The translations under genes were made by a program, and so were the position numbers. 64,000 nucleotides of DNA from Candidatus Fermentibacteraceae bacterium (GTDB lineage Bacteria; Fermentibacterota; Fermentibacteria; Fermentibacterales; JCC-6), in the NCBI GenBank assembly GCA_016744855.1, contig JADGDO010000004.1, positions 99,006-163,005 on the forward strand. Direction: 5' to 3'. The notes under the pieces were generated by a model. That model saw nothing but the letters and a program-made list of their open reading frames with translations, did no database searches and was not told the DNA's origin. Shown in pieces: positions 3,363 to 38,879 of the stretch. Numbering within the stretch: the stretch's first letter is position 1; the number at the start of each line of letters is the position of its first letter.

Positions 3363-3619
3363 AAGAATTCCTTTCTTTTATACGTTTCTGTAATAGTAAA
3401 CTGACAATACGGGGGTAAGCATTGAACTGTCAATGCCCTGCACTCCTATCGAGCTCAGATCCAGAGATTTCACTTTATCGGTTGAGGTAGTACTTGCCTT
3501 CAATCAAACTGTATAAATCCGCCATTCCTTGATAGACTCAGAATATGAACTACTGTTTTCTTTACTGGTCTTTTGCAATATTCATCCATATTCTTAAAAA
3601 TTCAATAAAGGAGTGCAAT

Positions 3620-5974
3620 ATGAAGTTTAGTTTGCCAAGCATTGTATTGGTGGCTATTATTACTGCTAGTTTCTCTTTTGGTAAAGAATTTGTAGTTACA
3701 ATACCAGTTGATGAATACAATTGCTCTCTTTCAGGCATATCTTCTGGAGCTTCAATTACCATCGAAGGAGTCCCAGGTATTGGCATAGTCGGTGCCCCGA
3801 TATTACCTGCAGTTCCCTTGAAACTAGCCCTGCCCACTGCGAATAGAGCCATATCAATTCGGATTTCAGAGATTTCATACAGTTCTGGAGAACATCTGGA
3901 GTATATTCCCCCAATGAGTAGGCCTGTTCCCACATCATGGGAGCATACATGCACTCCTGCTATACCAGATCCAGCTATTTATGAGCAAAACGAGTTTTTC
4001 CCTTCGACATCGGTAGTGCTGACGGGATCGGGAGTTTTATGGGGAATACCCATTGCAACTCTTACAATGTATCCAGCCAGATGGAATCCTATTTCACACC
4101 GAGTTGAATACATTGAATCTCTTACTCTGACTGTTGAAACCGAATACCACCCTGATGTTGTCAGGGTTAGCAGGAGAACAGCTGATAGTGAGAACCGTTC
4201 AATTGATATTCTCAGAAAACTTGTTGTGAACCCGGAAGACGTCTCTGCATCAGGTGCTGCAATCGTTCAACCTAGAGACCTTCAGTTTGGTCAGTACGTG
4301 GTTATATGTCCAGCTGAGTATCAGGAGGAATTTCAGGTTCTTGCAGACTGGAAAACCAGCAAGGGTATTCCTACTGCTGTTTATACAACAGACTGGGTAA
4401 CGACTAACTATTCCTATGGTGACCAACCTCAAAATATCCGTGCATTTCTCACTGATTGCATTTCTGAGGGAACAGATTACGCGCTTCTGGGGGGTGATGA
4501 TGATGTACTAGAGGCAAGGCAGGTAATACTTTCATCCCTGCAGATATCCCGTCCGTCAGATCTGTATTTTATAGACATTAATGATACAAATGTTGGTGTG
4601 GATAACTGGGATTCTAACAATAATTCGATATGGGGAGAATCCTATGATTCAGTAGAGTGGCATCCCGATATCTTTACAGGCAGGGCCTCAGTTAACAGTG
4701 AGGCTGAAGCTGAGCTGTTTGTTAACAAGGTTCTCTACTATGAACACGTTCTTGAAACATGGGCATCCAATCCCTGCAGCAGAGCGCCTGTGGAGATGAG
4801 AATCGGGTACAGCACTGGTGCTTATGAATACGGCGCTTCGGATACCTTGTGGGGAAGTACTGATGCTGAGCTTATTTCTTCCATGATTCCTGATACATGG
4901 CAAGAGGAGAAAAGATACGAGTCTGATGGTAACAATTCAGCTGCCCTCACCATTGAAATGATCAATATGGGGATGAACCAAGTGTTGCTTTTCTCGCATG
5001 GAGGTTACTGGGGATTTTACACCAGCTATGGTGACATTATGGACACCACCCATGTCAGCAATCTCGAGAATATTTCTCTTGGAGGAAGTGTTTCTATCTG
5101 GAACTCAACCGCTTGTTGTATAGGCTCATTCGACTCTCTTACATGCGTGGCCGATGCCTGGCTGAACAGCCCAGACGGTGGTGGATTCGGCTCCTTCAAT
5201 ACCCACTACGGATACTATAGTGGAATCAGTGCAGCTATAGTCGAGCGGTTTTTTCAAGAATACACTGTGAACGATGTTTACAACCATGGTATAGCGCACT
5301 CTCTTGCAATTGATTACTTCTGCCCACCAGACTGGTATTCTGCTACTGAAGATGTAGTGAAGGGGTACAATCTTTTTGGAGACCCTGAGTTACCGATGTG
5401 GACAGAAGAGCCTATTGATCTCTGGGTAATGCACCAGCCGGCAATTACAGGAAACACTACTTTGAGTGTAGTGGTCACTAGCCAGGGTGTTGCTCTAGAG
5501 GGTGCTAGGGTTTGTGTTCAGAAGGGAGACTGGCAGACTGGAGAGGTTTATGATGCAGCTGTCACTGATGTTACCGGAATGGCACAGGTCTGGGCGGCCC
5601 CGGAGACAACTGATCCAATCACAATTACAGTATGGGCGCATAACCATAACCTATATACAGGTGAAATCCAGGTTTTAGAAACAGGTCTGGTTTCCGGTGC
5701 TGTAGCAAATGTTACACTGATAGAATCAGTTTCTCCTGCCCCTGTTCACTCAGAAGCAGCTGTTAAGTTCTCAACATCAGAACTGGGGCTGGTCAAGCTG
5801 AACGTGTTCGATCTGCAGGGAAGAGAGGTAGAGACTCTTGTAACTGATGTTCTTGAAGCGGGTAGCCATTCTTACAACTGGAATTTGGAAGATGGTATTG
5901 CTTCAGGTATATATTTTGTAAGGCTCAGCAATGCTTCTCAAACCAGTACAAGACCAGTTGTTGTTTTAAGGTAA
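3620..5974 (+). CDS. Gingipain-like cysteine peptidase (family C25) with T9SS C-terminal sorting domain
   Basis: Signal peptide after the Met at 3620, preceded by an AAAGGAG RBS; candidate catalytic His in FSHGGYWG and Cys in STACCIGSFD; the C-terminus ...GIYFVRLSNASQTSTRPVVVLR is a Por/T9SS CTD. Confidence 0.7.
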   Translation: MKFSLPSIVLVAIITASFSFGKEFVVTIPVDEYNCSLSGISSGASITIEGVPGIGIVGAPILPAVPLKLALPTANRAISIRISEISYSSGEHLEYIPPMSRPVPTSWEHTCTPAIPDPAIYEQNEFFPSTSVVLTGSGVLWGIPIATLTMYPARWNPISHRVEYIESLTLTVETEYHPDVVRVSRRTADSENRSIDILRKLVVNPEDVSASGAAIVQPRDLQFGQYVVICPAEYQEEFQVLADWKTSKGIPTAVYTTDWVTTNYSYGDQPQNIRAFLTDCISEGTDYALLGGDDDVLEARQVILSSLQISRPSDLYFIDINDTNVGVDNWDSNNNSIWGESYDSVEWHPDIFTGRASVNSEAEAELFVNKVLYYEHVLETWASNPCSRAPVEMRIGYSTGAYEYGASDTLWGSTDAELISSMIPDTWQEEKRYESDGNNSAALTIEMINMGMNQVLLFSHGGYWGFYTSYGDIMDTTHVSNLENISLGGSVSIWNSTACCIGSFDSLTCVADAWLNSPDGGGFGSFNTHYGYYSGISAAIVERFFQEYTVNDVYNHGIAHSLAIDYFCPPDWYSATEDVVKGYNLFGDPELPMWTEEPIDLWVMHQPAITGNTTLSVVVTSQGVALEGARVCVQKGDWQTGEVYDAAVTDVTGMAQVWAAPETTDPITITVWAHNHNLYTGEIQVLETGLVSGAVANVTLIESVSPAPVHSEAAVKFSTSELGLVKLNVFDLQGREVETLVTDVLEAGSHSYNWNLEDGIASGIYFVRLSNASQTSTRPVVVLR

Positions 5975-6200
5975 AATGAGTTTGGCTTCGGGAAAAAAGC
6001 ATTTTTTACTTGCTTCTGTGAAGCAAATTTATGAGTAGAGGCTAAAGTATTAACTGCCGATGTTATATATGTTTGCGCAGTGCTTTGTCAGAGATTTTTC
6101 TTTATTGGTTGAATCACCACCCTGCCTTTCTGAGCAGAATGTCAAACGAGGATCGATTTGGTATGTTTGTCATTCTTTAGAGCATTTTGACAACTCAAGG

Positions 6201-7511
6201 ATGGAAATTCAGATGGAAATGATCTTGGGCCTTCTAACAGACTTGCTTGTTTGGGTCGTGCTGATAGCTCTTCTGTTGTTCTCAGTGTGGAATTACAGAT
6301 ATGGTTTTCTTCGAGCTTCAAGGCTGGCGTTGCTTCTGTTGCTTCTTGCTGGTGGAATTTATATTCTGTTTCACAACAGTATGATTCTTGTCTATTCGGT
6401 TCCAGCTGCATGTCTTATGATTTTCCTCTCTTTCCTTGTACCAATATCCCGAAAAACAAAGATGATTGTAGATTCTGACACGAGGCATGATGAGAGAGAT
6501 ATTACGTTTGCAAGACACAGACTGAAACCCGGTTCTGCGGACTATAAAGACTATTATGAGAGACATCCGGAGAAAGTGGAGAACGATAAAAAAACCAGAA
6601 ATCTTCCCGGCCTATGCGCTGAAAGAAGTAGTTTCTTCAATCGTTTGAATGCAGCAGCTACCGGGGCCAGCTTCTTTCTGCTAGGTAGTTTGAGAAATGC
6701 TGTGGATGGCCCTGTCTCAGAAATAAAACATGCTTCTCCTGAGGCCATAACAAACTTCCTTCGCGCTCTTTCGAAACATTATGGTGCCTGTTGTTTCGGA
6801 ACAGCAAAGATCAATTCCAAACACTACTATTCTCATGTTGGGAGAGGCGAAGGGCAGTACGGAAGCGAAATCCCTGCTGTACACAGCTATGCAATTGTGA
6901 TTGGCTCAGAAATGAAACCCGGTTTTACCGGAACTGCGCCATTGTCTCCTGAAGTTGTTGAAGTGGGAAGAAGGTATGTTGATTGTGCAGTAAGAGCTAT
7001 CGAGATTGCGGCAGTTGTAAGAAGCATGGGTTATTCAGCCAAAGCTCATATAGACGGTAATTACAAGGTTGTTGTACCCCTGGTAGCCAATGAAGCAAAA
7101 ATCGGTGGATTCGGCTGGAGCAACCTCTTTCTGACAAAGAAGTACGGGCCAAGGGTAAGATACTCCGTTGTAACGACTGATATGGAGATTCCTGCAGCTG
7201 AAGGTATACCTCCAGATTTCATACCATTTTGCAGTATCTGCCGGAAGTGTGCTGTTAACTGCCCTAGCCGCTCTATCAATCCCAAAAAACCGGACAAGAT
7301 AAATGCTGACAGATGTTACATGTACTGGAACTCGGTAGGAACCGATTGCGGCAAGTGTATTGCCGTTTGTCCAATGGGTCATCCGTGGGGTCCACTCAAG
7401 TCACTGGCTCTACGTTCCGCAACAGGAGCCCATTTACTCAAGACTCTGGATGATGCATTCTACGGCAAGAAACCTGAGTCACTGAAACTCTCTTCATGGA
7501 TGGGTAATTGA
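6201..7511 (+). CDS. Membrane-anchored iron-sulfur protein of the reductive dehalogenase / epoxyqueuosine reductase (RdhA/QueG) superfamily
   Basis: Two to three N-terminal TM helices; C-terminal CSICRKCAVNCP (CxxCxxCxxxCP) and DRCYMYW...DCGKCIAVCPMGHPWGP (C..CxxCxxxCP) ferredoxin-like motifs; start codon uncertain (6060, 6201 or 6213). Confidence 0.5.
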   Translation: MEIQMEMILGLLTDLLVWVVLIALLLFSVWNYRYGFLRASRLALLLLLLAGGIYILFHNSMILVYSVPAACLMIFLSFLVPISRKTKMIVDSDTRHDERDITFARHRLKPGSADYKDYYERHPEKVENDKKTRNLPGLCAERSSFFNRLNAAATGASFFLLGSLRNAVDGPVSEIKHASPEAITNFLRALSKHYGACCFGTAKINSKHYYSHVGRGEGQYGSEIPAVHSYAIVIGSEMKPGFTGTAPLSPEVVEVGRRYVDCAVRAIEIAAVVRSMGYSAKAHIDGNYKVVVPLVANEAKIGGFGWSNLFLTKKYGPRVRYSVVTTDMEIPAAEGIPPDFIPFCSICRKCAVNCPSRSINPKKPDKINADRCYMYWNSVGTDCGKCIAVCPMGHPWGPLKSLALRSATGAHLLKTLDDAFYGKKPESLKLSSWMGN

Positions 7512-7888
7512 TGAGCAATGTGCTTTTGATCGGAGCGAGTAACAACCCTTCCCGATACTCAAATAAGGCGATGGCTCGTTTGTTGGCTTCCGGACACCGT
7601 GTTATTCCAGTACACCCTTTTTCGGAAATAGAAGCCCCCGAACCCACTGTCCATCACCTTTCTCTCGTAAAAGGAAAAATAGATATTGCTGTTGTCTATG
7701 TGAGAGCGGAGTTGTTGAAAGCTGATCTGGTTGAATTGATAAGAATTGCTCCTGCACTGGTGATATTCAGCCCCGGAGCAGAGAGTGTTGAATTAAAAAA
7801 TAAACTTGAAAATACTGGTATCAGAACTAAAAACGCATGCACACTGGTTCTGTTGAGCATCGGTCGTTTTGACCTTGAGGAGGAATGA
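7508..7888 (+). CDS. CoA-binding domain protein
   Basis: LLIGASNNPSRYSNKAMARLLASGHRVIPVHP matches the CoA_binding_2 signature. Confidence 0.6.
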   Translation: MMSNVLLIGASNNPSRYSNKAMARLLASGHRVIPVHPFSEIEAPEPTVHHLSLVKGKIDIAVVYVRAELLKADLVELIRIAPALVIFSPGAESVELKNKLENTGIRTKNACTLVLLSIGRFDLEEE

Positions 7889-7889
7889 A

Positions 7890-8357
7890 ATGAGTGACAA
7901 GATTATTATTGCTTCACATGCTGATATTGAGAAATTTAACGGTAAAGAAGTTGGCAGATCCTCCTGGACCAGAATTACTCAGGAAACAATCAATGCTTTC
8001 GCTGATGCAACCAGCGATCATCAGTGGATACATGTTGACATTGAAAGGGCAGCAGCTTCTCCATTCGGGTCAACCATTGCACATGGTTTTCTAACGGTTT
8101 CACTTCTTCCGTCACTGCTTGATGAGATTATAGAAGTACGTGATTCTGAAATGACTGTAAACTACGCCGTTGAGAACCTTCGTTTCGGCACCCCAGTTCT
8201 TGTTAACAGTGAAGTTAGACTCATTCTCTCTGTAATTGAACTTCGGAATTTAAGGGGCATCACCAGAGTAACTCTTGGTGTCGAGATGGAAATAAATGGA
8301 GAGAAAAGACCAGCATACAAGGGTAGCATAATATTGCTATATCATTTCAAGCAGTAG
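7890..8357 (+). CDS. MaoC-like (hotdog fold) dehydratase
   Basis: WTRITQETINAFADATSDHQWIHVD...GSTIAHGFL is the MaoC dehydratase motif; GAGGAGG RBS 6 nt upstream of ATG 7890. Confidence 0.7.
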   Translation: MSDKIIIASHADIEKFNGKEVGRSSWTRITQETINAFADATSDHQWIHVDIERAAASPFGSTIAHGFLTVSLLPSLLDEIIEVRDSEMTVNYAVENLRFGTPVLVNSEVRLILSVIELRNLRGITRVTLGVEMEINGEKRPAYKGSIILLYHFKQ

Positions 8358-8360
8358 AAA

Positions 8361-9284
8361 TTACTTTCGAGGTGGTTGAATAGCTCTTTGAATGGTTTCA
8401 TCCAGTGAAAGTTTCGGCTTCCATCCGGTTATTCTTTCAACTTCTGTTTGCTTGCACAACCATTTTGAAGAGGTGATGTCTTTTGCCTTTTCGCGATCCA
8501 GCAGGGATCGACTTCCAGTTAATGTTGCCGCTGTTTCAGCTAGAAATCCAGCAGCATAAACAAGAAACGCAGGTACAGGAATTCTCAGTATCTTCTTTCC
8601 TGTGGTTTTTTCCATGGCTTTGTGAATGCCCTTCCATGTAACCATTTCGGGGTGCGATGGTTGCAGTATCTGCCCTTCAGCAGCCGGGTGGTTAACGAGT
8701 TCCGCCATGAATGAAGCAAGATCAGAAATTGAGATTACACAGAATTTAACATCATTGCCACCGAGAGTAACTGTGATTCCTCTACGTGCCCACAAGTAGA
8801 ATGACTCTGTTTCTTTGTCGTCCGGGCCAAGTGCCGCAGGAGATCTTACTATGATGAATCTTTTCAATCCGGTAACAACTTGCTCAGCAAGAATTTTACT
8901 TCTTCCATAAGACGATAGTGGCCCTGCACCATCAGGACCCGCAGCAGCCTGGCTTGAGGTCAGAACGAAGAGGGCTTCAGGACATTGAATTCTCACCGCT
9001 GCAGCAAGTGAAGCAGTCAGACCTCCATTGATCCTGTCAAAATCTTCTCCGGAGCGAGCCTTAACTGCGCCGGCAACATGATAAACAGCATCCATCCCTT
9101 CGAGGTGAGGGGAGATATCATGGATGGATTCAAGATTGACAACCACTTGTCTGCATTCAGCTGGAATGAGGCTCACTTCGGAAGTGGAGCGTACACCTGC
9201 AGTGACAGAGTGCCCGTTTTTTATCAGCTGTTCGGCAAGATTCCTGCCTACAAAGCCGGAAACGCCTGTCAGGAAAATTTTCAT
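8361..9284 (-). CDS. NAD-dependent epimerase/dehydratase family reductase (SDR; possible CerR-like ketoreductase)
   Basis: N-terminal Rossmann motif MKIFLTGVSGFVGRNL; 307 aa. Confidence 0.7.
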   Translation of the reverse strand: MKIFLTGVSGFVGRNLAEQLIKNGHSVTAGVRSTSEVSLIPAECRQVVVNLESIHDISPHLEGMDAVYHVAGAVKARSGEDFDRINGGLTASLAAAVRIQCPEALFVLTSSQAAAGPDGAGPLSSYGRSKILAEQVVTGLKRFIIVRSPAALGPDDKETESFYLWARRGITVTLGGNDVKFCVISISDLASFMAELVNHPAAEGQILQPSHPEMVTWKGIHKAMEKTTGKKILRIPVPAFLVYAAGFLAETAATLTGSRSLLDREKAKDITSSKWLCKQTEVERITGWKPKLSLDETIQRAIQPPRK

Positions 9285-9367
9285 CTGTTGCCCTTTCGTT
9301 CAAGCTTGGAATATGCCATTTCCTGTTTGATTTCGAAAGGTTTGTGGTTAGATTCATGTAGCAATCT

Positions 9368-10603
9368 ATGTTAACTAATTATCTATCCGGCTTAAACCGG
9401 AAAACGACGGGTGATTTCATGGACATTTTCCAGAAGTGTTTTGATTATGACAGGCCTGAGCAGGTAAAAGCCATGGGTCTTTATCCATATTTTGTTCCGC
9501 TGGAGGGGCATGTCGGTGCAGAAATGGAAATTGGTGGTCACAGCCTTATTATGCTTGGTTCCAATAACTATCTCGGGCTGACAGACAATCCATATGTAAT
9601 GGAGAAATCCCGAGAAGCCATTACCAAATACGGTACAGGATGTACCGGCAGCAGATTTATGAATGGAACTCTTGATATTCATATTGAACTTGAGGAAAGA
9701 TTGGCTAAATTCCTTAAACGAGATGCCTGTCTTACTTTCAGTACCGGTTTTCAATCCAATCTTGGTGCAATTAGTACTCTTGGACAGCGAGGTGATATTC
9801 TCTACCTCGACAGGGAAGATCATGCTTCAATAATAGATGGTGCCAGGCTTGGTTACGCCAAGGTTGTTAAATACAGACACAAGGATCTGGATCATCTTCG
9901 CCATATTCTGGAAAAATACCCCGGAGAACCTGGCCTTATTGTTACCGACGGTGTTTTCAGTATGGGTGGTGATCTTGCAGACATCAATGGTCTCGCTGAT
10001 CTTGCAGAGGAATTCGGAGTTCGCCTGCTTGTGGACGATGCACACGGTGTAGGTTCTATGGGTGCAACCGGTATGGGTACAGCAGAGCACCAGGGTTGTC
10101 ACGACAGGGTGGATATTACAGTCGGTACTTTTAGTAAATCATTCGCCTGTATAGGGGGATTTGCTGCTGGCGATGCCAAGGTAATCAGTTACCTTCGCCA
10201 CAACGCTAGAACAAATATTTTCAGCGCTAGTCTTTCTCCAGCTTCCGTTGCTACTGTTATTGCCTCGCTTGATGTATTGGAAAAAGAACCGGAACTTCTT
10301 GGTAAAGTCCACAGAGCCACCAAGAGATGCCGAGAGGGTTTGTCATCCCTTGGTTTCAATATAGGTCAGAGTGAAGCTCCAATTATTCCCATAGTGGTTG
10401 GTGAGGATCTGGATTGCTTCAGATTCTGGAAAGATATGTTTGATAACGGTGTGTTTACAAACCCCGTTATTTCTCCCGCTGTAGAGCCCGGTGCCGCAAT
10501 GCTTAGAACAAGTTTTATGGCAAGCCATACGGATGATATGATAGATCGTGCTCTTGAGATCTTTAAAAAGGTTGGCCGTGATCACAATCTGATAGGCGGC
10601 TAG
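9368..10603 (+). CDS. Alpha-oxoamine synthase family PLP enzyme (serine palmitoyltransferase / 8-amino-7-oxononanoate synthase-like)
   Basis: Class-II aminotransferase fold with GSNNYLGL, DDAHGVG and GTFSKSF (PLP lysine) motifs; alternative start at 9419. Confidence 0.75.
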   Translation: MLTNYLSGLNRKTTGDFMDIFQKCFDYDRPEQVKAMGLYPYFVPLEGHVGAEMEIGGHSLIMLGSNNYLGLTDNPYVMEKSREAITKYGTGCTGSRFMNGTLDIHIELEERLAKFLKRDACLTFSTGFQSNLGAISTLGQRGDILYLDREDHASIIDGARLGYAKVVKYRHKDLDHLRHILEKYPGEPGLIVTDGVFSMGGDLADINGLADLAEEFGVRLLVDDAHGVGSMGATGMGTAEHQGCHDRVDITVGTFSKSFACIGGFAAGDAKVISYLRHNARTNIFSASLSPASVATVIASLDVLEKEPELLGKVHRATKRCREGLSSLGFNIGQSEAPIIPIVVGEDLDCFRFWKDMFDNGVFTNPVISPAVEPGAAMLRTSFMASHTDDMIDRALEIFKKVGRDHNLIGG

Positions 10604-10604
10604 A

Positions 10605-11726
10605 ATGAAGTATTCTATTGAGAAAGTAGATAGCAGAAAAACAACAAAAGAATTTCTAATGCTACCATTCCGCATTAACAAGGATGACCCCCACTGGGTA
10701 CCTCCTTTGCTGATGAATGTGCGCCAGCTGATGAACGGTAAGCATCCCTTCCACGAGCACGCGGAGGTTGAATTCTACATTGCCAGAGATTCTGAAGGCA
10801 GAACTGCCGGTAGAATCAGTGCTTGTGTAAACAGAACTCATAATGAATACCATAATGAAAAAACCGGATTTTTCGGTTTCCTTGAATGTGAAAATGACCC
10901 GGAGCTTGCAGCACTTCTTCTGAAAACTGCAGAAGACTTTGTTAAGCCTCTTGGAATGGAAAGTATTCGAGGCCCATTCAACCTATCTACCAATGAGGAA
11001 TGCGGCCTTCTTGTCGAGGGGTTTGATACAGACCCCAGGCTTATGATGCTTCACAACCCCCAGTGGCTTGGGGGGCTTGTTGAAGCAGCCGGTTATACCA
11101 AACTTATGGATCTATTGGCGTACTGGCTTGATGGCGACAGTGATAAGTTCCAGAAGCTTTTCAGAATTGCAAAAATGGTGGAAAAGCGGGGTGAGTGGAA
11201 GGTTAGAGGTATCAATCTTAAAGACCTGGCTGAAGACATGCGAAAAATCATGGATGTCTACAACGAGTGCTGGGGCGAGAACTGGGGTTTCGTACCCATG
11301 ACTCCAAGAGAACTCACTGCAATGGTTGAAGAATTGAAGATGCTTATCACTTCTGAGCTTTCTCCCATTGTTGAGCTGAATGGGGAAGTTGTTGCGTTCG
11401 GAATAGGTCTTCCGGATGCCAACATAGCATTCAAAAAAGGCAATGGAAGAGCAGTACCGTCTGTTCTTGCTTTGAAGGTGCCACCATTTAAGGTAAACAT
11501 TGACCGGGTAAGAGTTCTGCTGATGGGTGTGAAAAAACAGCACAGAAACAAGGGGCTTGAGGCCCTAGTAATAGATAGACTGATAAAGAACAGCGCGAAA
11601 ATGGGAATGGGTCGGGGTGAGCTTTCCTGGATACTCGAGAACAATCGTGAGATGAGAGCCATACTCGAAAAACAGATGAATGCAGATCTGTATAAGCGAT
11701 ACAGAATTTACGAGAAGGAATTATAG
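10605..11726 (+). CDS. GNAT-fold N-acyltransferase-like protein (candidate bacterial ceramide synthase-like)
   Basis: 373 aa, begins immediately after the alpha-oxoamine synthase stop (operon); acyltransferase-like fold inferred, no confident family match by eye. Confidence 0.4.
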   Translation: MKYSIEKVDSRKTTKEFLMLPFRINKDDPHWVPPLLMNVRQLMNGKHPFHEHAEVEFYIARDSEGRTAGRISACVNRTHNEYHNEKTGFFGFLECENDPELAALLLKTAEDFVKPLGMESIRGPFNLSTNEECGLLVEGFDTDPRLMMLHNPQWLGGLVEAAGYTKLMDLLAYWLDGDSDKFQKLFRIAKMVEKRGEWKVRGINLKDLAEDMRKIMDVYNECWGENWGFVPMTPRELTAMVEELKMLITSELSPIVELNGEVVAFGIGLPDANIAFKKGNGRAVPSVLALKVPPFKVNIDRVRVLLMGVKKQHRNKGLEALVIDRLIKNSAKMGMGRGELSWILENNREMRAILEKQMNADLYKRYRIYEKEL

Positions 11727-13499
11727 ATGACTGAAAGAGAACTGGTTGATCTTTACATAAAGTTTTTTGAAGGCAAGGGTCACAAAAGAATTCCGGGGGC
11801 ATCGATAATCCCCGAGAACGATTCAACTATCCTCTTTACGCCTGCTGGTATGCAGCCTCTGGTTCCATACCTTCTGGGAGAGAAGCATCCTCAGGGGAAA
11901 AGGTTGGTTGACGTTCAGAAGTGTATTAGAACCGGTGATATCGAAGAGGTGGGAGACGCAACACACCTCACTTTTTTCAGAATGCTGGGAAACTGGTCTC
12001 TGGGTGGTTATTTCAAAAAAGAAGCTATTCAGTGGAGCTGGGAATTCCTGACTGGTGAAGAATGGCTGGGTTTCGACCCCGAAAGAATAAGTGTAACAGT
12101 TTTTGCAGGTGAAGGAGACATCCCTCCTGACAGAGAAGCAGAAGCTTTCTGGCTCGAAGCAGGTGTTCCTCCTGAGAGAATATACAGTCTGGGGATGAAG
12201 GACAACTGGTGGGGACCAACTGGTGCTACTGGCCCCTGTGGGCCTGATACCGAAATGTTCTTCGATACCGGGGCCGAGCCCTGCGGTGAGAATTGTATAC
12301 CTGGTTGTTCATGCGGTAAATACTTCGAGGTGTGGAACGATGTTTTCATGGAATACAGGAAAACTGAAGCAGCTTCTTTCGAACCCCTCTCTCAGAAAAA
12401 TGTTGATACTGGAATGGGTGTTGAGCGCACAGTAGCAATGCTGGGTGGTCACAAGACAGTATACGAAATCGGTGTTCTGAAACCCCTTATTGCAAGGATA
12501 AGAGAGCTTACTGCTTCTTCCGATCCGGGTCGATCTGAAAAAGTCTTAGCAGATCATATCAGAAGCGCAACGCATATTCTCGGTGATGACTTGGGTGTTG
12601 TACCATCCAATGTTGATCAGGGTTATGTACTCAGAAGGCTTATCCGACTTGCTATTCGACATGGAATGAAGCTAGAAATTCAAGATGGATTCCTCACTGA
12701 TCTTGCTTCCATAGTTATAGAAATAGAGGGTGAAGATTACCCTGAACTGAAGAGAAACAGCTCCACTATTATTGATGAACTTGAGAGAGAAGAAAAACTT
12801 TTCGGTGAAACTCTTGTTGCAGGCATGAAGCAGTTCAACAAGATGCTTCCTAATCTTCTGAAGAACCCTCAAAAAATCATAGCTGGCAGGCTTGCCTTTA
12901 AGTTGTATGATACCTACGGTTTCCCGGTTGAACTTACTGCAGACCTTGCAGTTGAACATGGATTGACCGTGGACATGGACGGATACAACAAGGCTTTCGA
13001 CAAACATCGCCAGCTTTCCAAGCAGGGTGCGGACAAGAAATTCAAGGGTGGCCTCGCGGATAACAGTGAGATGGTAACTAAACTTCATACCGCTACGCAT
13101 CTGCTCCACGCTGCCTTGCGGAAAGTTCTTGGGGAAACTGTACAGCAGAAGGGTAGTAATATCACTGCTGAAAGACTGAGATTCGACTTTCTCTTTGCTG
13201 AAAAAATGACTCAGGAACAGAAAGACGAAGTTGAAGCTCTTGTGAATAGCGCAATCAACGATAAAATTGCAGTGGAAATGAAGGAAATGTCTCCGGATGA
13301 GGCAGAGAAGCTAGGGGCTTTAGGGTTCTTTAAAGATAAGTATGGTGATGTTGTAAAGGTTTACAGTATAGGAGAATACTCAACTGAAATATGTGGTGGA
13401 CCTCATGTTGGAAACACCTCTGAGCTCGTCAGATTCAAGCTCGTCTCCGAGAAAAGCTCGTCCCGTGGTGTAAGAAGGATCAAGGCGGTAGTTGAATGA
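11727..13499 (+). CDS. alaS: Alanine--tRNA ligase, short form lacking the C-terminal C-Ala domain
   Basis: FTPAGMQP, RTGDIEEVG and FFRMLGNWS catalytic-core motifs; editing-domain HTATHLLHAAL and CGGPHV motifs; 590 aa. Confidence 0.85.
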   Translation: MTERELVDLYIKFFEGKGHKRIPGASIIPENDSTILFTPAGMQPLVPYLLGEKHPQGKRLVDVQKCIRTGDIEEVGDATHLTFFRMLGNWSLGGYFKKEAIQWSWEFLTGEEWLGFDPERISVTVFAGEGDIPPDREAEAFWLEAGVPPERIYSLGMKDNWWGPTGATGPCGPDTEMFFDTGAEPCGENCIPGCSCGKYFEVWNDVFMEYRKTEAASFEPLSQKNVDTGMGVERTVAMLGGHKTVYEIGVLKPLIARIRELTASSDPGRSEKVLADHIRSATHILGDDLGVVPSNVDQGYVLRRLIRLAIRHGMKLEIQDGFLTDLASIVIEIEGEDYPELKRNSSTIIDELEREEKLFGETLVAGMKQFNKMLPNLLKNPQKIIAGRLAFKLYDTYGFPVELTADLAVEHGLTVDMDGYNKAFDKHRQLSKQGADKKFKGGLADNSEMVTKLHTATHLLHAALRKVLGETVQQKGSNITAERLRFDFLFAEKMTQEQKDEVEALVNSAINDKIAVEMKEMSPDEAEKLGALGFFKDKYGDVVKVYSIGEYSTEICGGPHVGNTSELVRFKLVSEKSSSRGVRRIKAVVE

Positions 13500-14386
13500 T
13501 TTTTTCACTGATTGCTCTTCTTGCAACAGCAAACTTCAGCGGTACTTGGGAAACCACTTACGGAGATATGGTTCTCGAACAGAATGGCACTTCAGTTACC
13601 GGCTGGTACAGCTATGGAACCATGTCCACAATCGAGGGAACTGTTACCCAAGGTGGAAAAATGATGTTCACCTATGACGAAGGAACAGCTGCCGGAAGAG
13701 GATGGTTTGTTCTCTCTGAAAACGGTACATCCTTTTCAGGAGAATGGAGAGCAGAAGGGGCGCAGGGTTGGAGTGACTGGGAAGGCCACCGGGCAGACGG
13801 TGAACCATCTACCTGGGTTTTAATTCTTGAAGCAGAGTGGCAGGAGTCAATGCGCGAGAATGAGTATTCCTTCGGTGAAATGCTTGATGCCTGGCTTGGC
13901 AGACTTGAGGGCATTGAGATTAGACATCGTTTCATTCACGATCTCGATGATGTTCGGAATTTCTGTGCAGAAGCCGCGGTGCTCTCCGGTGATGTCTACC
14001 TGATTTTTGCCTCTCATGGAACAACTGCCGGTATTGCACTAAACTCTGGAACAGTATCAGCACGGGACCTTGCAGAAGCTCTGTTACCAATGACAAATCT
14101 TCAGCTGGTTCATTTCAGCTGCTGTGAGATTATGGCAGGAGGTACTGATGAGGCTATTATTAACTCTAGATCAAACTGGCATGACGACTTCGCAGTATCC
14201 GGTTACACTACCTCCGTGGACTGGGGTGGCAGTGCCATTATAGAATTTTACTATCTCAATCAGATACTGGAGAATGGACTTACTCCTGTAGAAGCGGCAC
14301 GGGCCCTCGAGAGTGATATCGGATTTTCCGGTGCATCATCAACACCCTGGATGGATGGTGCGGGTTTCGAGATTCAAACACCCTGA
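13496..14386 (+). CDS. Secreted clan CD (gingipain/caspase-like) cysteine peptidase-like protein
   Basis: N-terminal hydrophobic signal-like segment, then a beta-rich region, then a His in IFASHGTTAG and a Cys in VHFSCCEIMAGG, resembling the C25/C14 His-Cys dyad; ATGA overlap with the alaS stop. Confidence 0.4.
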   Translation: MIFSLIALLATANFSGTWETTYGDMVLEQNGTSVTGWYSYGTMSTIEGTVTQGGKMMFTYDEGTAAGRGWFVLSENGTSFSGEWRAEGAQGWSDWEGHRADGEPSTWVLILEAEWQESMRENEYSFGEMLDAWLGRLEGIEIRHRFIHDLDDVRNFCAEAAVLSGDVYLIFASHGTTAGIALNSGTVSARDLAEALLPMTNLQLVHFSCCEIMAGGTDEAIINSRSNWHDDFAVSGYTTSVDWGGSAIIEFYYLNQILENGLTPVEAARALESDIGFSGASSTPWMDGAGFEIQTP

Positions 14387-14399
14387 GAATCATATAGAA

Positions 14400-15440
14400 A
14401 TGAGGAACATGGATTTACTGAAGAGATTGTGTGAGGTCGACGGCATATCCGGTAGGGAAGATGCTGTTGTCAAGCTTCTGGAAGAGGAACTCAAAGATAG
14501 TGCTGACGAAATCTGGACAGATGCCATTAAGAACATAACTGCAGTTAAGTATGGAACTGAAGGTGAGGACAGGCTTCGAGTAATGCTCGCTGGGCATATT
14601 GATGAGATCGGTTTTCTGATTTACAACATAGACAAGAATGGTTTTGCATCAATAGTTCCGGTAGGCGGTTGGAGTGCATCATCTATTTTCGGCCACACCG
14701 TTAAGGTTCACACCCGAAAAGGTGAGTTGCTTACAGGTGTTGTCTGTGCTCCTCCTGCACTCACTCCTGAAGCCGCTGGGAAAGCTATCAAGCTAGACTC
14801 TCTCTACATTGATTTCGGTATGACCGGCGACGATGTAACAGAAAAAGTTTCCCGCGGAGACTGGGTCTCCATGGATACGAAATTCACAGAGATGGGTGAT
14901 TGTTTTGTGGCAAAGGCTTTTGATGACAGAGTCGGAGCCTACATAATTGCAGAAGCTTTTAAGAAGTACAGCAATCCTGCAATTGATGTTTACTGTGTAG
15001 GCACATCTCAGGAAGAGGTAGGTCTTAGAGGATCTACAGTAGCCGCTCAGACAATAATGCCCGATATCGGAATTGCAGCAGACATCACTGGAGCAGGAGA
15101 TACACCTGGTTTCCCTGCAGCAAAGAAAATCTGCGATTTGGGAAAAGGTGTTGCTATCAAGCAGCAGGATGCCAGCGTTATCTGTTCACCTTCCCTCGTT
15201 AATTTCATCCGTGACATTGCAGAGGAAAAGGAAATTGATCATCAGATGGAGATACTTGTAAGGGGTGGTACAGATACCAGCTCGATGCAGAAATTTGGCG
15301 GTAATACTCACGCCACCTGCCTCTCGATTCCCACTAGAAATGGACACAGCCCCGTCGCCATCATACATAGGCATGATGTTGAGACAGCAGTTGAACTTCT
15401 TGTGGAATTCCTGAACAAGGCTCATCTTTTTAAGGGCTAA
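14400..15440 (+). CDS. M42 family aminopeptidase (FrvX / glutamyl aminopeptidase-like)
   Basis: DGISGREDAV...MLAGHIDEIGF...VGTSQEEVGLRG motifs typical of the M42 family. Confidence 0.75.
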   Translation: MRNMDLLKRLCEVDGISGREDAVVKLLEEELKDSADEIWTDAIKNITAVKYGTEGEDRLRVMLAGHIDEIGFLIYNIDKNGFASIVPVGGWSASSIFGHTVKVHTRKGELLTGVVCAPPALTPEAAGKAIKLDSLYIDFGMTGDDVTEKVSRGDWVSMDTKFTEMGDCFVAKAFDDRVGAYIIAEAFKKYSNPAIDVYCVGTSQEEVGLRGSTVAAQTIMPDIGIAADITGAGDTPGFPAAKKICDLGKGVAIKQQDASVICSPSLVNFIRDIAEEKEIDHQMEILVRGGTDTSSMQKFGGNTHATCLSIPTRNGHSPVAIIHRHDVETAVELLVEFLNKAHLFKG

Positions 15441-17413: not shown

Positions 17414-17515
17414 GAATAGCAGTCAAGTAATTCCTTTGGGTTTACTCAGGGTTTCTTGAAATGTATCTTCAATCTTGATGAGATTTTTATTCAGTCCGCA
17501 ACAAAAGAGGTAAGA

Positions 17516-19711
17516 ATGAGATACATTTCTTTGATATTGCTCTGTTCCATTGCTTTTGCCGGGGGGGACCTTCCGGGAATTACGGGAGATTATCTTGAAC
17601 CGGTTGAGGTTACGGGCAGCTCTGTGCATCTTGTTACGTCTGTTCCTTCAAGGTTTAATGTGAATCCGGATACTCCGGAACCTGTTTCTGTTTTTGAGCC
17701 ACCAGCTGAGTACGAAGTAGTTGATTCATTCGATTGCCGATTTGTTGTGCCTGACAAAGAGGGGATTTGCCCAGCAGTTATCTCTCTTTCGGATGAAACA
17801 ATAGAGCCAGATGCAGAAATCACTTTAACGGATGATGCTCAACAGGCTGTAGATCTTGCACCAGAGTGGCTTCAGGACCATCTTATCTGGAAGTTTTCAA
17901 TACTTACAGAGGCTAATCAGGACAGGTATGGGGCCTTGTTGCTTGCTCATCAGGGACAGAATTACTTTGATGAACTAGCCTTCACTGTTGCTTATCTTTC
18001 CTGGACAATCTTGGCGAATCCAAGCTTGGATGAGACATTGCTCGTAGATAATGCTCAGGGTATTTATGACCATGATCCCTATCTCAGTTATGTAAATGTG
18101 AATGACTATGCTGGTGTAGACTACTACAGTACTACTGAATACAACACTATTGTGGGATCTGACACGGTATGGGTTGAAATACCAAAGGAGATTTACTACC
18201 ATTTCATAGTGATGCCGAAGGTTTCTGATGAGAAACCTCTCAATGATTCTACTGTTTATGATGAATTCTGGCGTCAGTATCTCTGGGATATGGATGATGC
18301 CGGGTATCCTGTTTTTAATGAGGTTCTGAACGAGAATGTACTTGTTTTCTGGGATGAGCAGACAAAGAATTACGGATGGTCAACAACACCGGTTTTCAGT
18401 GACAGTCTTCATGCCGTCGACATAATCAGTAAATGGAACCGCGCTATTATGCCTGACGGAGCCAGCGGTAACAGACCTGTCCAGCCCAATGTTATTGCCC
18501 ACGAGCACAACGGTAATTGCGGGGAGACTCAGGATCTGCTCTCTGCTTCTGCCAGGGTTGGGCTGATTCCGGTTGCCTGTACTATGGACATCAATGAGGA
18601 TCATGTGTGGTGTGAGATTTGGTGGGACGGTGAATGGCGTGGTTGGTATGTCGATACTGTTAACAATCACAACTGCGGTTATGACGCTGATTATGGTGGT
18701 TCAAAGGAAGTCAGCTGTGTCTGGAGCTGGCGCAATGATGGTTTTACCTGGGATGTTGTGGATTACTTCTCAGACTACTGCACATTTACAGTAACAGTTA
18801 CCGATTCTGCTGGAATTCCAGTTGACAATGCCAGTGTTCAGATTGCCAGTGAAGGCTGGCAGACAACTACTATATACAGGGGTACATGGGGAGAAACAGA
18901 TTGCAACGGGCAGATCACATTCAAGCTTGGTAATAATCAGAATTACTACTTGAGTATTGCCAGTTCTCTCGGTAATTTCGGCGGTGGTAGTTTCCAGGAG
19001 GTAATAGTCAATAGTGTTTCGGGTCAGGAGTACTATTTCGACTGGAGTCCTGAAAACCCTATGCCAGAACTTGAACTGAATGAAGTCAGTGAGGGTTCCT
19101 GGACAAAGTATCTTATCCAGGTTGATTACAATCTGCCTGCTGATATTATGAATGGAAGAGATTATTATGCAAGTCCCAGATCTGAGTATGCAGAACCTAT
19201 GGAAGATGGAACTGCAGACTTTTTCATTGTCGATTCTGCTAACTGGGAACTGTATCAGTCAGGAGAGGAATTCGACTGCTATGAGCTTATTCAAGGAGAG
19301 AGCAGTGGCATGGTATGGTTTTATGCTCCTCACACCGACGACTGGCACATAGTATTCAGCGGCGACAGACACCAGGGTGTTCAGACATTTGCTGAAGCTG
19401 AGTTTACCCTTTGGGAGCATGACGGCACTGGTATCAGTGGCGGAATCTCAACAGGAAATACTCCTGTTGTTTTCCCAAACCCATGCGTTAATACTGCTTC
19501 AGTTAAATTCACTACAACTGAAGCTGGGCGAACAGCGATCACAATGTATGATATCCATGGACGAGTAGTAAGTTCTCTTTCTGACGAGCAGATGGAAGCG
19601 GGAAGCCATGAACTTGTTCTTCCGACAGACGATCTTTCCAGTGGTCTCTATTTCTTGAGACTTGAGGGAGAGGGTTTAAACTCAATGCAGAGCGTTACTG
19701 TTTTAAGATAG
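17516..19711 (+). CDS. Transglutaminase-like cysteine protease superfamily protein with T9SS C-terminal sorting domain
   Basis: Signal peptide MRYISLILLCSIAFAGG; transglutaminase core Cys-His-Asp (NGNCGETQD ... DHVWCEIWWDGEWRGWYVD); the C-terminus GLYFLRLEGEGLNSMQSVTVLR is a T9SS CTD. Confidence 0.65.
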   Translation: MRYISLILLCSIAFAGGDLPGITGDYLEPVEVTGSSVHLVTSVPSRFNVNPDTPEPVSVFEPPAEYEVVDSFDCRFVVPDKEGICPAVISLSDETIEPDAEITLTDDAQQAVDLAPEWLQDHLIWKFSILTEANQDRYGALLLAHQGQNYFDELAFTVAYLSWTILANPSLDETLLVDNAQGIYDHDPYLSYVNVNDYAGVDYYSTTEYNTIVGSDTVWVEIPKEIYYHFIVMPKVSDEKPLNDSTVYDEFWRQYLWDMDDAGYPVFNEVLNENVLVFWDEQTKNYGWSTTPVFSDSLHAVDIISKWNRAIMPDGASGNRPVQPNVIAHEHNGNCGETQDLLSASARVGLIPVACTMDINEDHVWCEIWWDGEWRGWYVDTVNNHNCGYDADYGGSKEVSCVWSWRNDGFTWDVVDYFSDYCTFTVTVTDSAGIPVDNASVQIASEGWQTTTIYRGTWGETDCNGQITFKLGNNQNYYLSIASSLGNFGGGSFQEVIVNSVSGQEYYFDWSPENPMPELELNEVSEGSWTKYLIQVDYNLPADIMNGRDYYASPRSEYAEPMEDGTADFFIVDSANWELYQSGEEFDCYELIQGESSGMVWFYAPHTDDWHIVFSGDRHQGVQTFAEAEFTLWEHDGTGISGGISTGNTPVVFPNPCVNTASVKFTTTEAGRTAITMYDIHGRVVSSLSDEQMEAGSHELVLPTDDLSSGLYFLRLEGEGLNSMQSVTVLR

Positions 19712-19772: not shown

Positions 19773-19958
19773 AGCTCAATACCTCACAGGAAACGAAACG
19801 ATACACACAAGAACAACATTCATATTAAACCGGTCAGCTGTTAGGTGAATTGCCCCTGAAGTAGTGTTCTTGCACGACGAGGAATTGTTAATTATCTAAG
19901 GAACAATCTTTCTTGTGAATTGCAAGGTATTTCTTTTCTCGTTTTAAGGAATTTTTTC

Positions 19959-21194
19959 ATGAATGAACACAGGGTTGTTATTACTGGTCTTGGTGCTGTA
20001 ACACCGCTGGGTATAGGCGCAGAGGAGTCTTTCAGTAGTTTACTGAACGGGGTAAACGGTATAAGCAGGGTTACTCATTTTGATCCAACTGACTATCGTT
20101 CAAAACTCGCCGCGGAGGTTACAGATTTTGATCCTGAGAATTGGATAGACCGAAAATCTGCAAGCAGGATGGACCGTTTTACTCATTTTGCAATAGCTGC
20201 CTCCGCAATGGCCATGGAAGATTCCGGTTTGAAATCGTTTGATGCAAACAGAGCTGGAGTAGTCATCGGTTCAGGTATCGGAGGAGCTCAGACTCTTCAT
20301 GAGGGTTACACAACGCTCTTTGAAAAGGGGCCGGGCAGTCTCAGCTCGATTCTTGTATCCAGAATGCTAGTTAATATGGCAGCCTGTATGGCTTCAATTC
20401 GATTCGGCTTCAAAGGTCCACTATCCGCACCATCAGTTGCCTGTTCCACTGGATCCAATGCAATCGGCGATGCATTCAGAATTCTGCAGAGGGGGGACGC
20501 GGATATAATGCTTGCAGGAAGTGCAGAAGCTTGTATCTCCCCATTGCCCTATGGATGTTTTTGTGCAACCAGGTCTATGACGACAAATCCCTCTCCTGAA
20601 AATGCATCCAAACCTTTTGATAAAAAACGCGATGGTTTTGTAATGGGTGAGGGCTCCGGTATTGTTGTTCTAGAGACCCTGGAGCATGCGTTGAAGCGCG
20701 ATGCGAGAATCTACGCTGAAATGGCAGGATACGGCAACACTGCTGACGCTTATCATCTTACTGCTCCTGAACCCGAGAGTAATGGCATGATTCGCGTTAT
20801 GATTGCTGCCCTTAAGGATGCCGGACTGACTAAGAGAGATGTCGGTTACATAAATGCACATGGTACATCAACAAAACTAAATGACAAATGCGAGTGTGCT
20901 GCTATAAACAGTGTTTTTGGCGAATACTCATCTTCTCTTAAAGTGAGTTCAGTTAAGTCAATGATCGGTCACCTTATGGCCGCAGCGGGTGCTGTCGAGT
21001 TTATCACCACAGTATTGAGCGTTTTCACAGGAAAGGTTCCGCCAACGATAAACTACAGTGAGCCTGATCCTGATTGCGATCTTGATTTTGTAACATCGGG
21101 AGCTGAAACAGTTGATCTCCAGGCGGCGATCAGCAATTCATTCGGTTTTGGTGGAGGTAACTGTACTCTTGCCGTTAAGAAATACCGGGAGTAA
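19959..21194 (+). CDS. fabF: Beta-ketoacyl-ACP synthase II
   Basis: VVITGLGAVTPLG N-terminus; active-site Cys in SVACSTGSNAIGDA; the two catalytic His in NAHGTST and MIGHLMAAAG; RBS AAGGA upstream. Confidence 0.85.
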   Translation: MNEHRVVITGLGAVTPLGIGAEESFSSLLNGVNGISRVTHFDPTDYRSKLAAEVTDFDPENWIDRKSASRMDRFTHFAIAASAMAMEDSGLKSFDANRAGVVIGSGIGGAQTLHEGYTTLFEKGPGSLSSILVSRMLVNMAACMASIRFGFKGPLSAPSVACSTGSNAIGDAFRILQRGDADIMLAGSAEACISPLPYGCFCATRSMTTNPSPENASKPFDKKRDGFVMGEGSGIVVLETLEHALKRDARIYAEMAGYGNTADAYHLTAPEPESNGMIRVMIAALKDAGLTKRDVGYINAHGTSTKLNDKCECAAINSVFGEYSSSLKVSSVKSMIGHLMAAAGAVEFITTVLSVFTGKVPPTINYSEPDPDCDLDFVTSGAETVDLQAAISNSFGFGGGNCTLAVKKYRE

Positions 21195-37797: not shown

Positions 37798-37808
37798 TAG
37801 GGGGTATC

Positions 37809-38249
37809 ATGAAAAAGACGATCCTGGCACTGGTTGTGCTGAGTGTGCTTATGTTGCTTGTTGGTTGTGATCCGTTTGGATCCGAGAAAGCTATGACTTA
37901 CATAACAGGCACCATCTACTCAGATTCCTTAATGACAGTTCCTGCAGAGGGAGTTGGAGTGGAGTTACTTGTTAATCAGGACAGTTCTGCAGTTAGGTCT
38001 CAGACTGTATTCACCAATTCTTCCGGTGTATTCTTTATGGATATTCAGTTCTATCCTTCTCTTCCTGACGAGGAAACCGGAACTGGTTACACTCTTCCGA
38101 GTACCACGACGGTGGGCTTAAAGGCTCACTATGGAGGCGTATACTACGAATACAAAAAAATTGATGACGGATTTATTCTTTCAGCAGGAGATACACTTGT
38201 TGTATGGCCTATAGATTTGTCTTCTTTTTCAGCTTCCGGAGGAAAATAA
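37809..38249 (+). CDS. Lipoprotein (hypothetical) embedded in the pil cluster
   Basis: Lipobox LLVGC after a signal peptide; 146 aa. Confidence 0.45.
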   Translation: MKKTILALVVLSVLMLLVGCDPFGSEKAMTYITGTIYSDSLMTVPAEGVGVELLVNQDSSAVRSQTVFTNSSGVFFMDIQFYPSLPDEETGTGYTLPSTTTVGLKAHYGGVYYEYKKIDDGFILSAGDTLVVWPIDLSSFSASGGK

Positions 38250-38300
38250 CAATGATGATCTTTGCATCGATAAAACAGGAATCTGGAAGGGAGGCAGGCA

Positions 38301-38858
38301 TTGGCTGTTGATTTTCGAGATCCTCGATTACTCAGGTTCATCATCGGGATCATCCTCCTCGGCGCCCTGGTTTTCAGCTATTTCAACTTCTTTGCAAATT
38401 CTGTAAGTGAAGAAATTGCGGATAGAGAACAGACACTTGAGATGAAGGAGCTGGAATACAGTCAACTTCAGGGGCAGACTACGGATGATCTGGCCATGAT
38501 GGGTCAGAGAATTGAGATGTATAACCAGGAGCTTGAGGAACTGGACAGATTTCTTCCACGCCAGTACGGCCAGGAGGAAATTCTCGAGATGCTTACCGAT
38601 TTTGCAGGCGGAAGTGGCCTGCAGGTAGTATCCCTTGTTCCTATGGCACCGGTAGTAGACAGTGAGTACCAGATTTATGACTGGCAGATAACATTGACAG
38701 GTAGGTTTCACAGACTAGGTGTTTTCTTTGATCAGTTGACTCAGCAGCCCATGATGAGTTCTGTAACAAACTTACAGGTTCATCAGTTAAAGGCAGCAGA
38801 AGGTAAATTCGATAACATAGAAACTACATTCACTTTCTCGGCATACATACAGCCGTAG
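38301..38858 (+). CDS. pilO: Type IV pilus assembly protein PilO
   Basis: N-terminal TM helix, coiled coil, C-terminal ferredoxin-like region; position between pilM/N and pilP/Q. Confidence 0.6.
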   Translation: MAVDFRDPRLLRFIIGIILLGALVFSYFNFFANSVSEEIADREQTLEMKELEYSQLQGQTTDDLAMMGQRIEMYNQELEELDRFLPRQYGQEEILEMLTDFAGGSGLQVVSLVPMAPVVDSEYQIYDWQITLTGRFHRLGVFFDQLTQQPMMSSVTNLQVHQLKAAEGKFDNIETTFTFSAYIQP

Positions 38859-38879
38859 TAAGGAAGGAGGAACAAAACG

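Follow-up and report, generated by a model that had tools for sequence, protein, structure and literature searches.

A compact three-gene module for bacterial ceramide (dihydroceramide) synthesis is probably encoded in the genome of a Candidatus Fermentibacteria (Sabulitectum-like) bacterium, of which we analyzed a 64,000-nucleotide stretch of one contig (hereafter the window; all coordinates are window positions). The module comprises an alpha-oxoamine synthase (AOS) that resembles serine palmitoyltransferase (Spt), a 373-aa tandem-GNAT protein that resembles the bacterial ceramide synthase bCerS, and an extended, epimerase-family short-chain dehydrogenase/reductase (SDR) that resembles CerR, and the organism probably makes sphingolipids. 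A first-pass annotation of the same DNA had proposed that these genes follow the Spt–bCerS–CerR logic, which is supported by the phylogeny and active site of the AOS and by the homology of its two partners to genes of Sphingomonad sphingolipid clusters. The observed basis consists of three family memberships, an Spt active site that is conserved, and a conserved gene linkage. As the three-enzyme bacterial pathway was already known, the trio in the window represents a further instance of it in Fermentibacteria.

Comparisons with family models and with solved structures placed the AOS closest to characterized Spt enzymes. Its top NCBIfam model was the CFB-type Spt model NF047600 (480.2 bits), followed by the models for beta-proteobacterial Spt (385 bits), the BioF/Kbl family (373 bits), Kbl (364 bits), BioF (350 bits) and alpha-proteobacterial Spt (284 bits), and the scores for BioF and Kbl remained below their curated cut-offs (350 versus 426 bits for BioF; 364 versus 460 and 292 versus 493 bits for Kbl). 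The Pfam family Aminotran_1_2 matched with 184 bits. When all PDB sequences were searched with phmmer, the Spt of Sphingobacterium multivorum (SmSPT) came first, with 400 bits and 49% identity. Lower matches included a Thermus BioF/Kbl-type enzyme (274 bits), Sphingomonas Spts (252–257 bits), the cysteate-C-fatty acyltransferases 28eh (244 bits) and 7u7h (221 bits), Kbl (at most 243 bits), BioF (at most 185 bits), ALAS (180 bits) and CqsA (145 bits).

The residues of SmSPT that contact pyridoxal 5'-phosphate (PLP) and serine have been named from crystal structures (PMC10196870), and 13 of the 15 active-site residues examined are identical in the AOS (Asn52, Gly80, Ser81, Phe83, His138, Ser185, Asp210, Ala212, His213, Thr241, Ser243, Lys244 and Phe272, in SmSPT numbering). 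At the other two positions, Leu84 is replaced by Met and Met271 by Ile (Ile284 of the AOS), and the contact of SmSPT Met271 is made by its main-chain carbonyl (PMC10196870). In the alignment, the catalytic set of the AOS, namely the PLP lysine K257, the PLP-stacking His H152, the Asp for N1 (D223) and the His for O3' (H226), corresponds to K244, H138, D210 and H213 of SmSPT, and the L-serine contacts N66, G94, S95 and S256 are identical to Asn52, Gly80, Ser81 and Ser243.

Phylogeny pointed in the same direction. A neighbor-joining tree of 57 sequences, comprising GNAT-linked AOSs, SmSPT, the Spts of Sphingomonas wittichii and other Sphingomonads, E. coli Kbl and BioF, and Thermus BioF/Kbl, united the AOS with SmSPT and the GNAT-linked enzymes in one clade, with the alphaproteobacterial Spts as its sister group and with E. 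coli Kbl, E. coli BioF and Thermus BioF/Kbl all outside. In a 26-taxon subset, the Spt clade was separated from Kbl/BioF in 92 of 100 bootstrap replicates, and the SmSPT-containing subclade was recovered in 90. This is a small, distance-based tree whose sequences do not include CapB, CqsA and ALAS. Taken together, these sequence comparisons support the placement of the AOS with characterized Spt rather than with BioF/Kbl, in line with the Spt-like assignment of the first-pass annotation, whose proposed phylogenetic check gave no grouping with BioF or Kbl.

The gene that follows the AOS gene after a single nucleotide encodes the 373-aa protein, which had been described as acyltransferase-like. 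It is a GNAT-fold protein predicted to be soluble, with no transmembrane segments, and its closest homologs (87–88% identity) belong to Candidatus Sabulitectum / Fermentibacteria. Direct searches said little about its function: Pfam gave only a sub-threshold GNAT match and NCBIfam none, the public annotation reads just “N-acetyltransferase”, and PDB searches with the single sequence and with a 41-member profile returned weak C-terminal GNAT matches only and no bCerS structure. As authentic references for bCerS membership, we assembled 80 spt loci of Sphingomonadales, each with 10 kb of flanking sequence, starting from the S. wittichii Spt found in the PDB alignment. By tblastn, a full-length homolog of the 373-aa protein was present in 29 of the 80 loci (33–37.5% identity, E-values of 1e-50 to 1e-63), always on the spt strand and 3.4–9.8 kb downstream of spt. 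In one such locus, L051, the gene order is SDR, ACP (acyl carrier protein), Spt, histidine kinase, two LptF/LptG paralogs, one open reading frame (ORF) and GNAT, and its Spt scores 800 bits against the alpha-type NCBIfam model, over the cut-off.

In S. wittichii, the published orthologs are Swit_3897 for CerR, Swit_3899 for AcpR, Swit_3900 for Spt and Swit_3905/3906 for LptF2/G2, and Swit_3908 is the ortholog of the Caulobacter bCerS CC_1154, with 45% identity and an E-value of 5e-109 (PMC11324152 Table S2B). L009 encodes an Spt with 94% identity to that of S. wittichii, and its homolog of the window GNAT lies exactly at the Swit_3908 position. The comparison of the 373-aa protein with bCerS that had been suggested as a check was made through the Sphingomonad genes at this position: a hidden Markov model (HMM) of 22 Sphingomonad GNATs matched the window GNAT end-to-end with 270.7 bits, and a profile–profile comparison between the Sphingomonad GNATs and the metagenomic GNAT family described below gave 100% probability. 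On the strength of the full-length homology, the Swit_3908 position and the HMM score, the 373-aa protein is assigned by homology to the bCerS family, with the step from Sphingomonads to Caulobacter taken from the published table, and it is predicted to N-acylate 3-ketosphinganine or sphinganine. NCBIfam (release 20) and Pfam hold models for Spt and none for the bCerS and CerR families, and the Sphingomonas proteins at the bCerS and CerR positions likewise receive no specific NCBIfam model, so that the blank result for the window GNAT and SDR is not counter-evidence.

Divergently upstream of the AOS, as first described, lies the gene for the epimerase-family reductase. The SDR carries the GxxGxxG motif (G7/G10/G13) and the YxxxK motif (Y126/K130), both read from the sequence, and NDUFA9 chains are among its few top PDB matches; CerR has been described as NDUFA9-like (PMC11087976). 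Its best NCBIfam model was HpnA, with 56.6 bits. Homologs were found in 45 Sphingomonad loci (24–36% identity, E-values down to 1e-26), 0.5–1.5 kb upstream of spt and on the same strand, which is the Swit_3897 position in the SDR–ACP–Spt arrangement, and an HMM of the Sphingomonad SDRs matched the window SDR end-to-end with 123 bits. The identity between Swit_3897 and Caulobacter CC_1164 is 40% (PMC11324152 Table S2B). No N-terminal signal peptide was found in the window SDR, in which the Rossmann motif begins at residue 7, nor in its Sphingomonad or metagenomic homologs. Caulobacter CerR has been reported to be periplasmic and associated with the inner membrane; as the homologs lack a signal peptide too, its absence from the window SDR does not discriminate. 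Given the low pairwise identity, the CerR assignment, made by homology, is the weakest of the three, yet it is consistent with the others.

The association of the three genes extends well beyond the window. A scan of metagenomes with the GNAT family profile yielded 80 loci, and an AOS gene lay within 400 bp of the GNAT gene in 34 of the 43 that had at least 1.3 kb on both flanks. Where at least 2.6 kb was available on both sides (30 loci), the AOS was adjacent in 26, and 19 also had an SDR within 2.5 kb. At least four gene orders of the trio were observed. Fermentibacteria-like contigs (52–83% GNAT identity) show a reverse-strand SDR gene followed by AOS, GNAT, alanyl-tRNA synthetase (AlaRS), a 296-aa orphan and an M42 peptidase, and soil contigs (44–45% identity) show a co-directional series of SDR, AOS, GNAT, PAP2_3 and Rce1-like genes without AlaRS. 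The association of AOS, GNAT and SDR is far beyond chance, as it recurs in several orders and in unrelated metagenomes, and the fact that the linkage has been rearranged and yet persists argues for a shared pathway.

Additional genes accompany the trio in some of these loci, which belong to distant relatives. A PAP2_3 gene (PF14378, a Pfam family which we take to include the yeast inositol-phosphorylceramide synthase Aur1) lies within 3 kb in 12 of the 30 well-flanked GNAT loci; it was seen with the trio in L006, L007, L101, L103, L106, L108, L115, L149, L161, L163 and L165, among others. L006 and L007 add an Rce1-like CPBP gene, and the window carries neither. These PAP2_3 and Rce1-like neighbors may be head-group transferases. 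In three other loci (L105, L139 and L141), a bCerS-family gene adjoins an AOS on the opposite strand that is 31–32% identical to the window AOS and falls outside the Spt clade in the tree, and these loci may represent a different amino-ketone lipid pathway with the same acyltransferase family.

By analogy with the characterized homologs, the Spt-like PLP enzyme would form 3-ketosphinganine by condensing L-serine with a long-chain acyl thioester. The acyl donor would probably be acyl-CoA, as with the Sphingobacterium enzyme, since no dedicated ACP or acyl-ACP synthetase gene lies nearby. The tandem-GNAT bCerS homolog would then N-acylate the amine with a second acyl-CoA, and the CerR-like extended SDR would use NAD(P)H to reduce the 3-keto group, yielding dihydroceramide. 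The order of acylation and reduction is disputed even in Caulobacter (PMC11087976), and the last two steps could run in either order. The ceramide would presumably be destined for the outer membrane of a diderm bearing a type IX secretion system (T9SS), and genes for head groups, if any, would lie elsewhere, as the window holds none.

Several points weigh against this interpretation. The AOS score of 480.2 bits does not reach the equivalog cut-off of NF047600 (640 bits), so that the AOS is best regarded as a divergent Spt-like enzyme, with serine its putative amino-acid substrate. The connection of the GNAT and the SDR to the characterized bCerS and CerR is indirect and consists of two steps, from the window to Sphingomonads by our computation and from Sphingomonads to Caulobacter by the published table. 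The identity of the SDR to its Sphingomonad homologs is modest (24–36%), and extended SDRs form a large family. In addition, no gene for an ACP (AcpR), AasR, an Lpt paralog or a head-group enzyme was found in the 64-kb window. Finally, the proposed substrates, product and destination are extrapolated from characterized homologs to an uncultured lineage.

Among the alternatives, an unlikely one is that the same trio makes a non-canonical product, such as a 1-deoxy(dihydro)ceramide built on alanine, a base derived from glycine, or a different N-acyl amino-ketone or amino-alcohol lipid or signal. Such a product would fit the sub-cut-off score of the AOS, and Spt enzymes take alanine and glycine at low efficiency (PMC10196870); a Black Sea study has moreover associated unusual sphingolipids, 1-deoxy forms among them, with the “Spt-like” enzymes of anaerobes (PMC11334938). 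It would also fit the genomic context, in that AlaRS abuts the GNAT gene in all Fermentibacteria-like loci. The SmSPT residues that contact serine are nevertheless conserved in the AOS, AlaRS yields Ala-tRNA and not free alanine, and the AlaRS linkage is missing outside Fermentibacteria. The short-form AlaRS keeps its place next to the bCerS gene across Fermentibacteria at about 52% protein identity, and the order GNAT–AlaRS–orphan–M42 was found in all Fermentibacteria-like loci (L001, L003, L088, L089, L170 and L171) and in no other lineage, on account of which the linkage looks like neighborhood inheritance. There is only a slim prospect that the coupling of bCerS and AlaRS is functional, through alanine-based 1-deoxy-sphingolipids as in euxinic waters or through the use of Ala-tRNA by the dupli-GNAT in a Fem/MprF-like transfer onto lipid.

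It is very unlikely that the cluster serves the sulfonolipid (capnine/sulfobacin) pathway, with which the first-pass annotation had considered it compatible. In that pathway, the AOS would be a CapB/SulA-type cysteate-C-fatty acyltransferase, dehydrocapnine would be reduced by the SDR, and capnine would be the amine that the GNAT acylates. Both pathways share their chemistry and enzyme classes, sulfonolipids occur in the Fibrobacterota–Chlorobiota–Bacteroidota (FCB) group to which the organism belongs, and the two solved cysteate acyltransferases are detectable as AOS homologs. Their scores of 221–244 bits are, however, much lower than the 400 bits for Sphingobacterium Spt, and the compatibility is disfavored on this ground; the residues that position L-serine in SmSPT are kept, the GNAT and SDR are homologous to genes of Sphingomonad sphingolipid clusters, and the window showed no gene resembling a cysteate synthase. 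The last alternative holds that a BioF or Kbl of biotin or threonine metabolism stands by accident next to an unspecialized acetyltransferase and an epimerase for sugars, and the tree, the synteny and the Sphingomonad HMM matches effectively exclude it. While the BioF, Kbl and BioF/Kbl family scores (350–373 bits) are strong and the public name of the GNAT is generic, all of these scores stay under their own cut-offs and are lower than the Spt score, the tree leaves Kbl and BioF out of the AOS clade, the trio is linked in many lineages in differing orders, and no bio or tdh genes were found near the AOS in the ORF list or family scans.

Turning to the locus itself, the five ORFs named in the first-pass annotation, from the CoA-binding gene to the 373-aa protein, were all present with the families given there, as judged from the ORF list and Pfam/NCBIfam scans (Table 1). 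Both promoters are presumed to lie in the spacer between the divergent SDR and AOS genes; a promoter and terminator scan gave counts not above the shuffled expectation, and it used a sigma-70 consensus, which is uninformative for the Fermentibacteria lineage. The probable start codon of the AOS is the ATG at 9419, which would yield a protein of 394 aa, because AOS homologs have 392–394 aa and similarity to SmSPT opens at residue 23; this ATG is preceded by a GGGTGA motif, and the listed 411-aa ORF would be 17 codons too long.

Table 1. Features of the ceramide module, its neighbors and other parts of the window
Feature	Position	Strand	Remarks
T9SS-cargo-like protein	3545-5974		judged from sequence alone
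Reductive-dehalogenase/QueG-like Fe-S gene	6060-7511	+	TIGR02486 78 bits, under cut-off
CoA_binding_2	7508-7888	+	126 aa
MaoC dehydratase	7869-8357	+	162 aa
CerR-like reductase, extended (epimerase-family) SDR	8361-9284	-	307 aa; Pfam Epimerase/NAD_binding_10
Divergent SDR/AOS intergenic spacer	9285-9367	.	83 bp; 134 bp if AOS start = 9419
Spt-like AOS	9368-10603	+	ORF 411 aa; class I/II aminotransferase fold; PLP lysine K257
bCerS-like N-acyltransferase, tandem-GNAT	10605-11726	+	373 aa
AlaRS, short-form PRK01584-type	11727-13499		590 aa; abuts GNAT stop
Orphan protein	13496-14386		296 aa; no family match
M42 peptidase	follows orphan, within 11727-15440
T9SS-cargo-like protein	17456-19711		C-terminal Por_Secre_tail sorting domain (Pfam)
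FabF/FabB-like beta-ketoacyl synthase	19920-21194		stand-alone
TIR-domain protein	21200-23401	-	733 aa; N-terminal TIR domain
Type IV pilus assembly cluster	36064-42043		PilM-like, PilO, 469-aa protein without family match, PilQ-type secretin with AMIN domain
T9SS-cargo-like protein	54601-56823		C-terminal Por_Secre_tail sorting domain (Pfam)

A MaoC dehydratase and a CoA-binding protein had been noted beside the reductase, and both are indeed present there. The CoA_binding_2 gene overlaps both the MaoC gene and the upstream Fe-S gene, and the three genes run toward the 3' end of the SDR gene, from which a gap of 3 nt separates them; being overlapping, encoded on the forward strand and convergent on the SDR, they are taken as a separate transcription unit. 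No MaoC or CoA-binding homologs were found in the 80 Sphingomonad or 80 metagenomic loci, nor in L001 or L003, MaoC being kept only in relatives at 76–83% identity and the complete unit only in close relatives (L170). As they do not travel with the trio beyond close relatives, we rejected them as members of the ceramide module.

A search of the window for PAP2, ACP, LptF/G and Rce1-like genes found none. The FabF/FabB-like ketoacyl synthase is found some 8 kb past the module on its downstream side, and L170 likewise has a ketoacyl synthase downstream. The window also encodes the TIR-domain protein, and adjacent RES and TIR_2 genes occur past the M42 peptidase in the related contig L001 (13446-14446 of that contig); these TIR-domain and RES/TIR_2 genes look like defense or toxin genes. 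The T9SS-cargo-like proteins comprise two C25 (gingipain-like) peptidases and a Big_1 protein, consistent with a diderm organism of the FCB group. The attribution of the DNA to an FCB lineage is upheld by this cargo and by the Candidatus Sabulitectum / Fermentibacteria affiliation of the closest homologs.

If this interpretation is correct, ceramide-based lipids are made by members of Fermentibacteria, an uncultured candidate phylum of anaerobic fermenters found in sediments, digesters and hypersaline mats, adding one more lineage to the predicted bacterial producers of sphingolipids. This would agree with recent work that identified anaerobic bacteria as major sources of sphingolipids in the environment, and it would bear on the interpretation of sphingolipid biomarkers in anoxic settings. 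As it comprises three contiguous genes with no ACP or acyl-ACP synthetase, the module also offers a conveniently minimal system that could be reconstituted in a heterologous host and used to test the disputed order of acylation and reduction. In addition, it is useful for annotation, as the bCerS and CerR families are without a curated NCBIfam or Pfam model and such clusters are therefore annotated as “N-acetyltransferase” and “epimerase”.

Comparison with known systems shows both shared and distinct features. The ceramide genes of Caulobacter crescentus encode Spt (CC_1162), bCerS (CC_1154/CCNA_01212) and CerR (CC_1164/CCNA_01222) (Olea-Ozuna 2021; Stankeviciute 2022, as cited in PMC11324152 and PMC11087976). 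The window shares with the Caulobacter/Sphingomonad pathway the three enzyme families and their clustering; its GNAT and SDR match the HMMs of the Sphingomonad orthologs with 271 and 123 bits, and its SDR is NDUFA9-like, as is CerR, and lacks a signal peptide, as do the Sphingomonad genes. It differs in that AcpR, AasR, LptF/G/C paralogs and head-group genes are absent nearby, in that the trio is directly adjacent instead of spread over about 10–15 kb, and in that the AOS is of the CFB type and not of the alphaproteobacterial type (480 versus 284 bits). The solved tandem-GNATs, namely the mycothiol synthase MshD (1OZP), MAB_4324 (7Q3A) and a GlcN N-acetyltransferase (5KF1), are more distant, with 11–15% identity to the window GNAT, and they acetylate sugars or thiol precursors and do not attach long-chain acyl groups to a sphingoid base.

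S. multivorum Spt (PDB 3A2B, 8GUH) is the closest characterized relative of the AOS, with catalytic and substrate residues conserved, and the AOS is presumably likewise an acyl-CoA-using soluble homodimer. Unlike the Bacteroidota Spt set, the AOS lies below the NF047600 cut-off, and the spt, cerS and cerR genes that are dispersed in Bacteroidota (PMC11334938) are contiguous in the window. Our literature search found no paper pairing Fermentibacter* with sphingolipids, and the name does not occur in the text of PMC11334938 or in the supplements searched. That study of Black Sea metagenomes described an “Spt-like clade B” in uncultured marine anaerobes, often with bCerS/CerR nearby, and predicted producers in about 40 phyla of mostly anaerobic bacteria (PMC11334938). 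The interpretation proposed for the window is of a similar kind, with a divergent Spt-like gene and neighboring bCerS and CerR homologs in an uncultured anaerobe.

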